From the NCBI RefSeq assembly GCF_030013595.1, contig NZ_CP122768.1: a DNA stretch of 64,000 nt; one strand, given 5' to 3'. This DNA is from Escherichia coli (GTDB lineage: Bacteria; Pseudomonadota; Gammaproteobacteria; Enterobacterales; Enterobacteriaceae). The notes under the pieces were generated by a model. It saw only the letters and a program-made list of their open reading frames with translations, was not told the origin of the DNA and ran no database searches. The stretch's first letter is position 1, and every line of letters starts with the position of its first letter. Of this stretch, positions 32,016-61,721 are shown in pieces. The position numbers were made by a program, and so were the translations under genes.

Positions 32016-32355
32016 TACCGTTGTCTCTCGTCCAGGTTTACTCCTGATAGAAAGTCATCGGCACTTGACGGTAATTACTTATGACCAAAAACCTCTTTGC
32101 GTCACATTTTTACAACAATTATGGCAGAGAAAATTAATGCTATTGGAATGAAGAGAGTAACGAATGGCTAAACTGGCTAACCCGAATGACGAAAAATTCT
32201 GGAAAACAGCACGCAATTTCGTCAGGTGATTATTTTCGTCCCTAAGGAAACCACATAGGATGCTCACGGGTGCCTGAGACTTTCTGTTTTCAGGCTAACC
32301 GGGAATCAGAAAGACGAAGGCCCCGACCGATATTTCTATCAACCGAGGCCAACGA

Positions 32356-32563
<208 letters not shown>

Positions 32564-32787: not shown

Positions 32788-33042
32788 GATGTTTTCATAT
32801 AACCTCCATGGTTTATCGAATCTTATGTTCGATTTGAACGTTATACGCTGGTTTATTTTGATACCGTTGATGAGATCAAAGATCGGGTGAATTGATTAAA
32901 GATAAGCCAGATGGACGTATGGATAAGGATTATGGTTTTATTTGTCATACAAATAAATATAATAGGCGCTTCCGATGTAGACCCGTATTCTTCGCCTGTA
33001 CCACGGGTCGGTTTTAGTACAGGCGTTTTCTTTAAATATCCT

Positions 33043-49353: not shown

Positions 49354-50062
49354 AGAATAAATATCCTCCGGCATAGCCGGAGGTTTTTCAAATGCGCCTG
49401 TAAGGCTCTGTTACCAGCCGCGCCCTAACAGGCGCATACGATCTGACATTTGCATTCAACTTCGTTACTTACGGCCCGTAAACGGGCTGCCCGGATATGG
49501 AATCGATAACTGCTCCCCCATTTTATCCTCTTCAAGCTGGTGCTTTATGTAGTCCTGTATCTTCGCCGTGTTCTTACCCACCGTATCGACATAGTACCCT
49601 CGGCACCAGAACTCCCTGTTTCTGTATTTGAATTTCAAATCCCCAAACTGCTCGTAAAGCATCAGACTGCTTTTCCCTTTCAGATATCCCATAAAGCCGG
49701 ATACGCTCATTTTGGGTGGGATTTCCACAAGCATATGGATATGATCTGCGCAGCACTCTGCTTCCAGAATCCGTACGCTTTTCCACTCACACAGCTTTCT
49801 CAAAATACTGCCTATCGCCCTACGCTTCTCTCCGTAAAACGCCAGTCTTCGGTATTTCGGCGCAAAAACTATGTGATATTTACAGTTCCAGCGGGTGTGC
49901 GCTAAGCTCTTTTCGTCCCCCATTGGGACCCCCTTTTGATTTCTTGTTTGACACTTGCAGTTGCCAGACCGCAAGGTGTTTTAACAAATCAAAAGGGGTT
50001 TTAATAACTGGCTCAAAGCTGAAAGCTTTCCGGAACCCCCAGCCTAGCTGGGGGTTTTCTGT
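49354..50062 (-). mobile_element. IS200 (IS200/IS605 family), ~709 bp; boundaries approximate
   Basis: Contains tnpA; LE perfect hairpin AACCCCCAGC-CTA-GCTGGGGGTT at 50034-50056; RE hairpin CCTCCGGCATAGCCGGAGG at ~49365-49383. Confidence 0.8.
49465..49923 (-). CDS. tnpA: IS200 transposase TnpA (Y1/HUH), 152 aa
   Basis: MGDEKSLAHTRWNCKYHIVFAPKYRR.. with HxH motif (ADHIHMLVEIPP); inside tracked ORF 49465..49974. Confidence 0.85.
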   Translation of the reverse strand: MGDEKSLAHTRWNCKYHIVFAPKYRRLAFYGEKRRAIGSILRKLCEWKSVRILEAECCADHIHMLVEIPPKMSVSGFMGYLKGKSSLMLYEQFGDLKFKYRNREFWCRGYYVDTVGKNTAKIQDYIKHQLEEDKMGEQLSIPYPGSPFTGRK

Positions 50063-56670: not shown

Positions 56671-59600
56671 ATGATTACTATTGACGGTAATGGCGCGGTT
56701 GCTTCGGTGGCGTTTCGCACCAGTGAAGTTATCGCCATCTACCCTATTACCCCCAGTTCCACAATGGCAGAACAGGCTGATGCCTGGGCCGGAAACGGCT
56801 TGAAGAACGTTTGGGGAGACACACCACGCGTGGTTGAAATGCAGTCGGAAGCGGGTGCTATCGCTACCGTGCATGGCGCTTTGCAGACGGGTGCCCTTTC
56901 AACATCGTTTACGTCATCGCAGGGTTTGCTGCTGATGATCCCGACGCTGTACAAACTGGCAGGCGAACTGACGCCATTTGTCCTGCATGTAGCGGCACGT
57001 ACCGTTGCCACACATGCACTCTCTATTTTTGGCGATCATTCCGACGTTATGGCGGTGCGCCAGACGGGTTGCGCGATGTTGTGTGCGGCTAACGTCCAGG
57101 AAGCGCAAGACTTTGCTCTCATTTCGCACATCGCAACGCTGAAGAGCCGCGTGCCATTTATTCATTTCTTTGATGGTTTCCGCACGTCCCACGAAATCAA
57201 TAAAATTGTCCCGCTGGCCGATGACACTATTCTTGATCTCATGCCGCAGGCCGAAATTGATGCTCATCGCGCCCGGGCGCTCAACCCGGAACATCCGGTG
57301 ATCCGCGGTACGTCCGCCAATCCTGACACTTATTTCCAGTCTCGCGAAGCCACCAACCCGTGGTACAACGCAGTTTACGACCATGTTGAACAGGCGATGA
57401 ATGATTTCGCTGCCGCGACAGGTCGTCAGTATCAGCCGTTTGAGTATTACGGGCATCCGCAAGCGGAACGGGTGATTATCCTGATGGACTCTGCCATTGG
57501 CACCTGTGAAGAAGTCGTTGATGAATTGCTAACCCGTGGCGAAAAAGTCGGCGTGCTGAAAGTTCGCCTGTACCGTCCCTTCTCCGCCAAACACTTGCTA
57601 CAAGCTCTGCCGGGATCCGTACGCAGCGTGGCGGTACTGGACAGAACCAAAGAACCCGGTGCCCAGGCTGAACCGCTCTATCTGGATGTGATGACCGCAC
57701 TGGCAGAAGCCTTTAATAATGGCGAGCGCGAAACCCTGCCCCGTGTCATTGGTGGGCGCTATGGTCTTTCATCCAAAGAATTTGGCCCGGACTGTGTACT
57801 GGCGGTATTTGCCGAGCTCAACGCGGCTAAACCGAAAGCGCGCTTTACGGTTGGTATTTACGATGATGTGACCAATCTGTCACTGCCGTTGCCGGAAAAC
57901 ACCCTGCCAAACTCGGCGAAACTTGAAGCCTTGTTTTATGGCCTTGGTAGTGATGGCAGCGTTTCCGCGACCAAAAACAATATCAAGATTATCGGTAATT
58001 CCACGCCGTGGTACGCACAGGGCTATTTTGTTTACGACTCCAAAAAGGCGGGCGGCCTGACGGTTTCTCACCTTCGCGTGAGCGAGCAGCCGATTCGTTC
58101 CGCTTATCTGATTTCCCAGGCTGATTTTGTTGGCTGCCACCAGTTGCAGTTTATTGATAAATATCAGATGGCTGAACGTTTAAAACCTGGCGGCATTTTC
58201 CTGCTCAACACACCGTACAGCGCAGATGAAGTATGGTCGCGCTTGCCGCAGGAAGTTCAGGCCGTGTTAAACCAGAAAAAGGCGCGCTTCTATGTGATTA
58301 ACGCGGCGAAAATCGCCCGCGAATGTGGCCTGGCGGCCCGTATTAATACCGTCATGCAGATGGCTTTTTTCCATCTGACGCAAATTCTGCCTGGCGATAG
58401 CGCCCTCGCAGAATTGCAGGGTGCGATTGCCAAAAGTTACAGTAGCAAAGGTCAGGATCTGGTGGAGCGCAACTGGCAGGCTCTGGCGCTGGCGCGTGAA
58501 TCCGTAGAAGAAGTTCCGTTGCAGCCGGTTAATCCGCACAGCGCCAATCGACCGCCTGTGGTTTCCGATGCCGCTCCTGATTTCGTGAAAACCGTTACCG
58601 CGGCGATGCTCGCCGGGCTTGGTGATGCCCTCCCCGTTTCGGCGCTGCCGCCAGACGGCACCTGGCCGATGGGCACCACGCGCTGGGAAAAACGCAATAT
58701 CGCCGAAGAGATCCCCATCTGGAAAGAGGAACTCTGTACCCAATGTAACCACTGCGTCGCCGCTTGCCCACACTCAGCTATTCGCGCAAAAGTGGTACCG
58801 CCTGAAGCGATGGAAAACGCCCCTGCCAGCCTGCATTCGCTGGATGTGAAATCGCGTGATATGCGCGGGCAGAAATATGTCTTGCAGGTGGCACCGGAAG
58901 ATTGCACCGGTTGTAACCTGTGCGTCGAAGTTTGCCCGGCGAAAGACCGTCAGAATCCAGAGATTAAAGCCATCAATATGATGTCGCGGCTGGAACATGT
59001 CGAAGAAGAGAAAATCAATTACGATTTCTTCCTCAACCTGCCAGAAATCGACCGTAGCAAACTGGAACGTATTGATATTCGTACATCGCAGCTGATTACA
59101 CCGCTGTTTGAATATTCCGGTGCTTGCTCCGGTTGTGGCGAGACGCCGTATATTAAATTGCTGACTCAGCTCTATGGCGACCGGATGTTGATCGCTAACG
59201 CCACCGGCTGTTCTTCAATTTATGGCGGTAACCTGCCCTCTACACCGTATACCACCGATACCAACGGTCGTGGACCGGCATGGGCGAACTCGCTGTTTGA
59301 AGATAACGCCGAATTTGGCCTTGGTTTCCGCCTGACGGTCGATCAACACCGTGTCCGCGTGCTGCGTCTGCTGGATCAATTTGCCGATAAAATCCCGGCG
59401 GAATTACTAACTGCGTTGAAATCAGACGCCAAGCCAGAGGTTCGTCGTGAACAGGTTGCAGCTTTACGCCAGCAACTCAACGATGTTGCCGAAGCACATG
59501 AACTGCTACGTGACGCAGATGCACTGGTAGAAAAATCAATCTGGCTGATTGGTGGCGACGGCTGGGCTTACGATATCGGCTTTGGCGGTCTGGATCATGT

Positions 59601-60195
59601 ATTGAGTTTGACCGAAAACGTCAACATTCTGGTGCTGGATACGCAATGCTATTCCAATACCGGTGGTCAGGCGTCGAAAGCGACACCGCTGGGTGCAGTA
59701 ACTAAGTTTGGCGAGCATGGCAAACGTAAAGCGCGTAAAGATCTTGGCGTCAGTATGATGATGTACGGTCATGTTTATGTGGCGCAGATTTCTCTCGGCG
59801 CGCAGCTCAACCAGACGGTGAAAGCGATTCAGGAAGCGGAAGCGTATCCGGGGCCATCGCTGATCATCGCTTATAGCCCGTGTGAAGAGCATGGTTACGA
59901 TCTGGCACTCAGCCACGATCAGATGCGCCAACTCACTGCCACCGGCTTCTGGCCGCTATATCGCTTCGATCCACGTCGAGCCGATGAAGGCAAACTGCCG
60001 CTGGCACTGGATTCACGCCCGCCGTCAGAAGCACTGGAAGAAACGTTACTTCATGAGCAACGTTTCCGTCGTCTGAATTCGCAGCAGCCAGAAGTGGCAG
60101 AACAGTTATGGAAAGATGCTGCAGCTGATTTGCAAAAACGCTATGACTTCCTGGCACAAATGGCCGGAAAAGCGGAAAAAAGCAACACCGATTAA
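56671..60195 (+). CDS. ydbK: Pyruvate:flavodoxin oxidoreductase, 1174 aa
   Basis: ORF track; two 4Fe-4S ferredoxin CxxCxxCxxxCP motifs and TPP-binding region. Confidence 0.9.
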   Translation: MITIDGNGAVASVAFRTSEVIAIYPITPSSTMAEQADAWAGNGLKNVWGDTPRVVEMQSEAGAIATVHGALQTGALSTSFTSSQGLLLMIPTLYKLAGELTPFVLHVAARTVATHALSIFGDHSDVMAVRQTGCAMLCAANVQEAQDFALISHIATLKSRVPFIHFFDGFRTSHEINKIVPLADDTILDLMPQAEIDAHRARALNPEHPVIRGTSANPDTYFQSREATNPWYNAVYDHVEQAMNDFAAATGRQYQPFEYYGHPQAERVIILMDSAIGTCEEVVDELLTRGEKVGVLKVRLYRPFSAKHLLQALPGSVRSVAVLDRTKEPGAQAEPLYLDVMTALAEAFNNGERETLPRVIGGRYGLSSKEFGPDCVLAVFAELNAAKPKARFTVGIYDDVTNLSLPLPENTLPNSAKLEALFYGLGSDGSVSATKNNIKIIGNSTPWYAQGYFVYDSKKAGGLTVSHLRVSEQPIRSAYLISQADFVGCHQLQFIDKYQMAERLKPGGIFLLNTPYSADEVWSRLPQEVQAVLNQKKARFYVINAAKIARECGLAARINTVMQMAFFHLTQILPGDSALAELQGAIAKSYSSKGQDLVERNWQALALARESVEEVPLQPVNPHSANRPPVVSDAAPDFVKTVTAAMLAGLGDALPVSALPPDGTWPMGTTRWEKRNIAEEIPIWKEELCTQCNHCVAACPHSAIRAKVVPPEAMENAPASLHSLDVKSRDMRGQKYVLQVAPEDCTGCNLCVEVCPAKDRQNPEIKAINMMSRLEHVEEEKINYDFFLNLPEIDRSKLERIDIRTSQLITPLFEYSGACSGCGETPYIKLLTQLYGDRMLIANATGCSSIYGGNLPSTPYTTDTNGRGPAWANSLFEDNAEFGLGFRLTVDQHRVRVLRLLDQFADKIPAELLTALKSDAKPEVRREQVAALRQQLNDVAEAHELLRDADALVEKSIWLIGGDGWAYDIGFGGLDHVLSLTENVNILVLDTQCYSNTGGQASKATPLGAVTKFGEHGKRKARKDLGVSMMMYGHVYVAQISLGAQLNQTVKAIQEAEAYPGPSLIIAYSPCEEHGYDLALSHDQMRQLTATGFWPLYRFDPRRADEGKLPLALDSRPPSEALEETLLHEQRFRRLNSQQPEVAEQLWKDAAADLQKRYDFLAQMAGKAEKSNTD

Positions 60196-60223
60196 ATGCT
60201 CTGGATAAGAATTATCCAATTCT

Positions 60224-60328
60224 AAAAAAAAGCCCGAACGACTGTTCGGGCTTGTCTCATTATTTGTTGGATAAACAGTAACAAGGGTCCAACAGAAAAT
60301 AATCTTTGTGACAATAAAGGCATATAAC
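60224..60328 (-). ncRNA. micC: MicC small RNA
   Basis: Minus-sense GTTATATGCCTTTATTGTCACA.. 5' end and hairpin plus U-tract terminator; between ydbK and ompN as in K-12. Confidence 0.7.
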
Positions 60329-60555
60329 CCGCGAAGAATAACGTATAGCAAATTAAAAGTATAATTTTTATTTTGTATGTATTATCTTCGATACATTCAC
60401 CAGACTTATTATCATTTCAGAAGAATTATTTGATTAAGGTTTTACTTAAGGCGTAACAAATGATATTTATCGGCTAACTGAACTTCTCCTTTAGGATGTT
60501 TTCACTCCCCGAAATGGGGATAAAAGGCAAATAAAATAACTAAAGGATTTATTCA

Positions 60556-61689
60556 ATGAAAAGCAAAGTACTGGCACTTTTAATTCCTGCCCTGCTCGCC
60601 GCAGGTGCTGCACATGCAGCCGAAGTTTATAATAAAGACGGCAACAAATTAGATCTGTATGGCAAAGTTGATGGCCTGCATTATTTTTCTGATAATTCAG
60701 CGAAAGATGGTGACCAGAGCTATGCGCGTCTGGGTTTTAAAGGCGAAACCCAAATTAACGATCAACTCACTGGCTACGGTCAATGGGAATACAATATTCA
60801 GGCAAACAACACTGAATCCTCAAAAAACCAGTCATGGACCCGTCTGGCATTTGCCGGATTGAAATTTGCAGATTACGGTTCTTTCGATTACGGACGTAAT
60901 TATGGCGTAATGTACGACATCGAAGGCTGGACCGATATGCTGCCTGAATTTGGCGGTGACTCTTATACCAATGCAGACAACTTTATGACTGGTCGTGCCA
61001 ATGGCGTCGCGACTTATCGTAATACTGATTTCTTCGGTCTGGTAAATGGTCTGAACTTCGCGGTGCAGTATCAAGGTAACAACGAAGGTGCCAGTAATGG
61101 TCAGGAAGGCACCAACAACGGACGTGATGTTCGCCATGAAAACGGTGACGGCTGGGGTCTTTCCACAACATATGATTTAGGCATGGGCTTTAGCGCTGGT
61201 GCGGCATACACCTCTTCTGACCGCACCAATGACCAGGTTAACCATACTGCGGCGGGTGGTGATAAAGCAGACGCGTGGACTGCTGGGCTAAAATACGATG
61301 CTAACAATATTTACCTGGCAACCATGTATTCAGAAACGCGTAATATGACCCCGTTTGGCGACAGCGATTATGCTGTTGCTAACAAAACCCAGAACTTTGA
61401 AGTTACTGCACAGTACCAGTTTGATTTTGGTCTGCGTCCGGCAGTCTCTTTCCTGATGTCTAAAGGCCGTGACCTGCACGCTGCCGGTGGTGCAGACAAC
61501 CCGGCAGGTGTTGATGATAAAGATCTGGTTAAATACGCCGATGTTGGCGCGACTTACTATTTCAACAAAAATATGTCCACCTACGTTGACTATAAAATCA
61601 ACCTGTTGGATGAAGATGACAGCTTCTACGCTGCCAACGGCATCTCTACCGATGATATTGTCGCTTTAGGTCTGGTTTATCAGTTCTAA
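60556..61689 (+). CDS. ompN: Outer-membrane porin OmpN, 377 aa
   Basis: ORF track; signal peptide; C-terminal ..GLVYQF. Confidence 0.85.
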
Positions 61690-61697
61690 ATCCTCCT

Positions 61698-61721
61698 GCC
61701 CGCTGTTATGGCGGGCTTTTT
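61698..61721 (+). terminator. ompN terminator
   Basis: GCCCGCTGTTATGGCGGGCTTTTT. Confidence 0.6.

Follow-up and report, generated by a model that had tools for sequence, protein, structure and literature searches.

The 64,000-nt stretch of Escherichia coli DNA analyzed in this work (referred to below as the window) contains, on its minus strand, the micC gene, i.e., a textbook small RNA (sRNA) gene at its textbook site, the biology of which is already known. The hairpin that ends MicC is placed between micC and the convergent gene ydbK, and it probably (we put the probability at roughly 0.65) acts as a strong terminator for micC and as a partial, leaky one for ydbK, both efficiencies being judged from sequence rules. 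An earlier note on this DNA took the same hairpin for a shared bidirectional terminator, which is a reasonable interpretation, yet an overstated one for the window sequence.

Identification of micC and its genomic neighborhood

The locus is composed of the following features:

56671..60195, plus strand: ydbK (nifJ), pyruvate:ferredoxin (flavodoxin) oxidoreductase, 1174 aa, converging on micC (TIGR02176, 1629.8 bits)
60224..60328, minus strand: micC, encoding the MicC sRNA; this allele is 105 nt long, counted from the +1 G through the last U of U8 (RF00121 and end-to-end alignment with K-12)
60556..61689, plus strand: ompN, porin, 377 aa, divergent from micC and co-oriented with ydbK (NF007841, 594 bits)
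61698..61716, plus strand: ompN terminator, the next plus-strand terminator after ydbK (terminator scan)

The Rfam search, named in the earlier note as the way to check its micC assignment, was run, and the MicC model (RF00121) matched positions 60216..60331 of the minus strand with 107.8 bits, above the gathering score of 90 (E-value 8.6e-17). The match spans the full model (positions 1–123) and was recovered again in the scan of the whole window, where it was one of four Rfam matches. Model score, synteny, seed and ompC pairing all agree on the membership of this RNA in the MicC family, and the identity proposed in the earlier note is thereby borne out. The remaining Rfam matches were the STnc490 Hfq-binding sRNA (49933–50056, minus strand; 146.4 bits, gathering score 56), as well as the sok antitoxin RNA (32268–32419, plus strand; 109.7 bits) and the RydC sRNA (32969–33032, plus strand; 92.5 bits), with about 550 nt between the last two.

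In the K-12 annotation, micC (b4427) occupies positions 1437121..1437231, and in the alignment the same two ends fall at 60328, the +1 G, and at 60224, the last U of the terminator run, which makes the 60224–60328 span put forward previously the exact counterpart of the K-12 gene at both ends. The gene is 105 nt long here and 111 nt long in K-12, the difference being a 5-nt deletion and one U fewer. Its minus-strand sequence runs GUUAUAUGCCUUUAUUGUCACA...GACAAGCCCGAACAGUCGUUCGGGCUUUUUUUU, and both elements recognized earlier on this strand were found in place: the RNA 5' end, GUUAUAUGCC, starts at 60328, and the terminator stem is formed by 60232–60239 and 60244–60251. The predicted fold of the RNA was better than those of 200 out of 200 shuffled sequences (z = −3.45).

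The ydbK stop codon (TAA) is located at 60193–60195. With uspF as a further neighbor downstream and ldhA upstream, the gene order uspF-ompN-micC-ydbK is the K-12 arrangement, read from the opposite strand. Across the homologous loci, found in Escherichia, Citrobacter, Superficieibacter and Pseudocitrobacter, the order ydbK, convergent micC, ompN was observed in about 29 of 30, i.e., the convergent PFOR gene is present in about 29 of 30 loci and ompN lies co-oriented beyond micC in most of them. In Salmonella enterica subsp. arizonae and diarizonae (loci L016 and L022), micC is accompanied by the convergent PFOR gene; an ompN homologue was not found within 3–4 kb upstream of micC, and therefore the pairing of micC with ompN is not universal.

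Region 60150–60560 is 100% identical to that of two pig isolates, the sole genomes identical across the micC region, and the RefSeq annotation of the identical genome also names ompN. In the pig isolates (L001 1-1546, NZ_CM149870.1), ydbK is broken by an ISVsa5-family insertion sequence, while the window carries the intact 1174-aa open reading frame (ORF). A sigma-70-like site, TCGATA-16-TATCAT, is present upstream of ompN (60388–60415, plus strand), the same as in K-12, and its location in the micC-ompN spacer makes it a candidate ompN promoter.

Conserved elements of MicC and target pairing

Within and just upstream of the gene, the following elements were distinguished:

60307..60328, minus strand: MicC 5' seed, nt 1–22 (GUUAUAUGCCUUUAUUGUCACA), pairing with the ompC mRNA leader; identical to K-12
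60265..60294, minus strand: MicC internal stem-loop, nt 35–64 (UGUUGGA/UCCAACA), from the Rfam consensus structure
60335..60340, minus strand: candidate −10 element of micC, TATTCT, at −12..−7, predicted from the sequence alone

For the comparative analysis, 27 homologues were collected by an exact-seed scan in which each species was represented by a single genome; their sources are Escherichia, Citrobacter and Salmonella arizonae/diarizonae, and the Superficieibacter and Pseudocitrobacter loci found in the same scan were excluded from this alignment. One further seed match, in a Clostridiales metagenome-assembled genome (L009), was a chance hit lacking the hairpin and was dropped. Among the 27 homologues, which represent several genera, MicC nt 1–21 are invariant, and 86.7% of the cells of the internal stem are paired, with a C-G/U-A exchange at one pair. 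It is in the loop of this stem that the 5-nt deletion and the majority of the differences between this allele and K-12 are located.

The seed forms 15 contiguous base pairs with the ompC leader at −29..−15, as calculated with the K-12 leader, not that of the window strain. The energy of this duplex was −27.9 kcal/mol vs. −13.7 ± 2.7 kcal/mol for shuffled seeds; the seed paired with the ompN leader at just −14.6 kcal/mol, no better than the shuffles against ompC. In the mechanism ascribed to Chen et al. (2004, J Bacteriol 186:6689, as cited in PMC5745476), MicC blocks ompC translation by Hfq-dependent pairing near the ribosome-binding site. Following that literature model, the first ~22 nt of the window RNA would pair with the ompC leader and cause the translation block, and the A/U-rich linker, the hairpin and the poly-U would constitute the usual Hfq-binding 3' module of MicC.

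The 60 nt upstream of the micC +1 are the same as in K-12 except for position −6 (T here, G in K-12), and the candidate −10 element did not pass the sigma-70 consensus scan. It is also worth mentioning that MicC was undetected in late growth and that both micC and ydbK are poorly expressed under standard conditions.

The terminator hairpin read from both strands

The junction of micC and ydbK contains the following elements:

60202..60218, plus strand: small 7-bp hairpin UGGAUAA-GAA-UUAUCCA of the ydbK 3' UTR, past the stop codon and ahead of the MicC terminator (predicted fold)
60224..60231, minus strand: U8 tract of MicC, A8 on the ydbK strand (read from the sequence; tail score 5.22)
60230..60253, both strands: terminator hairpin, 8-bp G+C-rich core and two A-U pairs, 4-nt loop (match in the minus-strand scan)
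60252..60266, plus strand: ydbK-direction tail TTGTCTCATTATTTG, an interrupted U-tract, complement of the MicC A/U-rich linker and the conserved GACAA

The core stem, 60232–60239 and 60244–60251, is GCCCGAAC/GUUCGGGC around a 4-nt loop. As the hairpin is a perfect palindrome, the same stem forms in transcripts of either strand, and the energy of the core was −13.8 kcal/mol in both directions. Among the 27 homologues, the terminator stem is essentially invariant and its loop variable. What differs between the two directions is the tail, which was scored with a decaying-weight U-tract score (our own implementation of the d'Aubenton-Carafa scheme) used together with the hairpin energies.

On the micC side, the tail score of 5.22 is unmatched by any other 15-mer in the window, and the consensus terminator scan flagged the hairpin in the micC direction only. 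The MicC 3' module thus has the make-up of a Rho-independent terminator with poly-U, i.e., a 10-bp hairpin followed by U8. The micC transcript, read from the minus strand starting at 60328, would accordingly be expected to end at the GCCCGAAC-AGUC-GUUCGGGC hairpin and U8 (60224–60253).

Read from ydbK, the hairpin core begins 36 nt past the stop codon and is preceded by the A8 run. The earlier description of the hairpin as directly following the ydbK stop was close, but not literal, given this 36-nt gap. After the hairpin comes the tail UUGUCUCAUUAUUUG (UUGUCUCA), with four U in the first eight nucleotides and eight U in 15 nt. Its score was 2.63 vs. 5.22 for micC and 4.30 and 4.20 for the canonical terminators of ompN and uspF, and in the window allele it failed the consensus terminator scan. 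On the other hand, this tail is within the top 2.7% of the window 15-mers for U-richness, and of all the perfect 8-bp G+C-rich hairpins that the window contains, that of micC alone has two tails scoring above 2.6. The tail on the ydbK side thus ranks as intermediate rather than null.

The same asymmetry was found in the 30 homologous loci, with scores of 4.7–6.0 for the micC tail and 2.3–3.3 for the ydbK-direction tail. The latter starts with UUGUC or UUAAA, nearly always with UUGUC, which is the complement of the invariant MicC GACAA. The gap between the PFOR stop and the hairpin was 22–41 nt in essentially all of these loci.

Upstream of the MicC hairpin, in the ydbK 3' UTR, the stem of the small hairpin is kept in Escherichia and its loop is variable, and there is no U-tract after it. 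In Citrobacter and others, a hairpin of unrelated sequence occupies the corresponding position, in many cases extending over the stop codon. In one Citrobacter metagenome-assembled genome (L015), the converging gene has a canonical terminator of its own, CCCCCAGC-CTA-GCTGGGGG followed by TTTTCTG, which is located about 10–40 nt downstream of the micC terminator and so just ahead of the MicC hairpin for the converging gene. This is the only locus in which the neighbor clearly does not rely on the MicC hairpin.

Two natural micC alleles in E. coli

The comparison with K-12 revealed a divergence hotspot at 60255–60307 (MicC nt 22–74), which includes the 5-nt deletion and is flanked by sequences that are about 98–99% identical. 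Of the 71 differences from K-12 counted over 2995 aligned bases, 16 are packed into ~80 nt of the MicC body, against an expectation of 1.9 (Poisson P = 2e-10). Very few changes were seen in the seed, the terminator and the 224-nt spacer separating micC from ompN. The MicC body (nt 22–72) shows 73% identity with the common E. coli allele, a distance similar to that of other Escherichia species (68–71%). Identity to the window micC among 5412 complete genomes was distributed as follows:

at least 99%: 449 genomes
95–99%: 52 genomes
90–95%: 1 genome
80–90%: 4910 genomes (K-12 type)

The window type is therefore a minority allele, present in about 9% of complete E. coli genomes. At least one strain, KY1497, carries a mosaic of the two alleles. 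The two types differ at the terminator in the following respects:

Terminator stem: perfect in the window allele; in the K-12 type, an A.C mismatch in the micC direction and G.U in the ydbK direction
Hairpin, micC direction: −13.8 kcal/mol in the window allele; −9.3 kcal/mol in the K-12 type
Hairpin, ydbK direction: −13.8 kcal/mol in the window allele; −13.3 kcal/mol in the K-12 type
ydbK-direction tail: UUGUCUCAUUAUUUG, score 2.63, in the window allele; UUGUCUUUUUAUAUG, score 3.24, in the K-12 type

The perfect stem of the window allele (60230–60253; K-12 counterpart, L002 1702–1725) is also the stem of the other genera. As a result of the stem and U-tract differences, a simple scan flags the ydbK direction alone in K-12 and the micC direction alone in the window. 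No description of this dimorphism was found, and it is unmentioned in Skippington & Ragan 2012. An ancient polymorphism would be one possible origin, and the acquisition of a short segment from a lineage not yet sampled would be another.

Termination of ydbK transcripts

In the terminator scan, no other plus-strand candidate was found between the ydbK stop and the ompN terminator at 61698–61716, and thus ydbK transcripts either stop at the MicC hairpin or run into ompN. According to Fabrega et al. (2012, as cited in PMC6176095), ydbK and ompN are co-expressed in a SoxS-activated operon, which was described in another strain, with constitutive SoxS. Such an operon requires read-through of the MicC hairpin. 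The evidence of these authors is said to be RT-PCR across the junction, which does not quantify read-through.

Under the preferred reading, i.e., a strong terminator for micC and a leaky one for ydbK, the palindromic hairpin, with A8 before it and UUGUCUCAUUAUUUG after it, would stop some of the ydbK transcripts. The remaining ones would cross micC and its promoter in the antisense orientation, enter ompN and be released at the terminator of that gene.

A hairpin that is an efficient, truly shared bidirectional terminator, leaving ydbK monocistronic, was the proposal of the earlier note, and we consider it unlikely, even though several observations speak for it. Part of the proposal stands, namely the geometry (convergent genes, a hairpin 36 nt past the stop and A8 upstream of it) and the lack of any other plus-strand candidate. 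The 22–41-nt PFOR gap is conserved across genera and nearly all loci have no separate canonical PFOR terminator. Moreover, the scan accepts the ydbK direction of the K-12-type allele, with a hairpin of −13.3 kcal/mol and the tail GUCUUUUUAU, which indicates that the weak ydbK tail is partly specific to the window allele. There is also a precedent, since the rpsO T1 terminator and that of the SraG sRNA are the same bidirectional terminator (PMC5029454).

The part that does not stand concerns the ydbK side. Of the features of a bidirectional terminator, the G+C-rich hairpin between convergent genes is present, but the U-tract is found on one strand only, being U8 on the micC side and interrupted on the ydbK side. 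The ydbK tail has four U in eight positions, failed the scan and scored 2.63 vs. 4.2–5.2 for nearby working terminators, and the reported co-expression of ydbK and ompN (as cited in PMC6176095) also argues against complete termination.

A U-tract may, however, matter less where polymerases converge. Bidirectional terminators are common between convergent E. coli genes (Ju et al. 2019, as cited in preprint 10.1101/2022.10.23.513370), and termination driven by collision, which does not need a good U-tract, has been described at stem-loops between such genes (Ju 2019; Wang et al. 2022, same preprint). The geometry of this class, a convergent pair with a stem-loop, is present here, and at times of micC transcription the hairpin could therefore be an efficient stop for ydbK. 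As for mapped transcript ends, the Term-seq supplements of Adams et al. 2021 contain no ydbK/micC entries, the only local 3' end being antisense to ompN, and no ydbK/micC 3' ends were found in the SMRT-Cappable-seq supplements.

Still less probable, in our view, is that the hairpin plays no part in ending ydbK transcripts; its position would then result from gene packing, and the ydbK transcripts would all read through to the ompN terminator or end by Rho or processing. That the ydbK tail is rich in U could be explained simply by its being the complement of the conserved MicC linker AAUAAUGAGACAA, and the ydbK-ompN operon, as reported through PMC6176095, also speaks for this reading. However, a G+C-rich hairpin of −13.8 kcal/mol followed by UU and eight U in 15 nt normally gives some pausing or termination, and the position of this tail in the top 2.7% of window 15-mers likewise speaks against the absence of any role. 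Finally, the chance that the region codes for a small protein instead of an RNA is negligible: although an 81-aa ORF (60106..60351, minus strand) is mechanically listed among the six-frame ORFs, it starts with TTG, runs antisense to the ydbK end and contains the 5-nt indel that separates the E. coli alleles, as well as many non-multiple-of-three indels across homologues, for which frame-breaking changes between alleles and species this reading was rejected, and the covariance-model match with the conserved structure fully explains the region.

Comparison with known systems

The window gene resembles K-12 MicC in its locus, orientation, identical 22-nt seed, internal stem and terminator architecture, with the promoter one base off. 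It differs in the body (nt 22–72, 73% identical, with the 5-nt loop deletion) and at the terminator, where a perfect stem (−13.8 kcal/mol) stands against the A.C mismatch of K-12 (−9.3 kcal/mol) and a ydbK tail of 2.63 against one of 3.24.

In the rpsO T1/SraG pair (PMC5029454), an sRNA gene and a convergent protein gene similarly meet at one hairpin. That terminator is labelled bidirectional in the cited work, whereas the micC/ydbK junction has an interrupted U-tract on the protein side and a reported read-through into ompN. The terminators described by SEnd-seq (Ju et al. 2019) and by Wang et al. 2022 share with it the convergent pair and the stem-loop between the ends. However, that class is defined by transcript ends with both units transcribed, while the micC/ydbK junction is known here from sequence and both of its genes are poorly expressed. 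The micF-ompC locus offers another likeness, an sRNA repressing a porin and divergent from another porin gene (PMC5745476), but micF belongs to a different RNA family and its target is ompF.

Possible antisense read-through and its significance

The leakiness proposed for the ydbK direction allows a further, speculative idea, which we regard as rather improbable, that the hairpin is a tunable gate, leaking under SoxS- or RpoS-driven ydbK expression, yielding an antisense copy of micC and differing in leakiness between alleles. When SoxS or RpoS drives ydbK, leaking polymerases would copy full-length micC in the antisense orientation on their way to ompN. This read-through would interfere with micC transcription, and the antisense RNA could also pair with MicC, so that stress-induced ydbK transcription might raise OmpN and free OmpC from repression by MicC. 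Under this idea, leakiness and the termination of micC itself would both vary between the two E. coli alleles.

The finding of micC in the window has little import beyond correct annotation, and the terminator question is of modest interest. Nevertheless, in most E. coli genomes the RefSeq/PGAP annotation lacks micC, with no features under the match, which makes its recognition useful housekeeping. The two natural alleles constitute a ready-made test of how mismatches and U-tract interruptions affect direction-specific termination. If ydbK transcription does read through micC into ompN, an sRNA that regulates porins would be faced with an antisense mRNA induced by stress.
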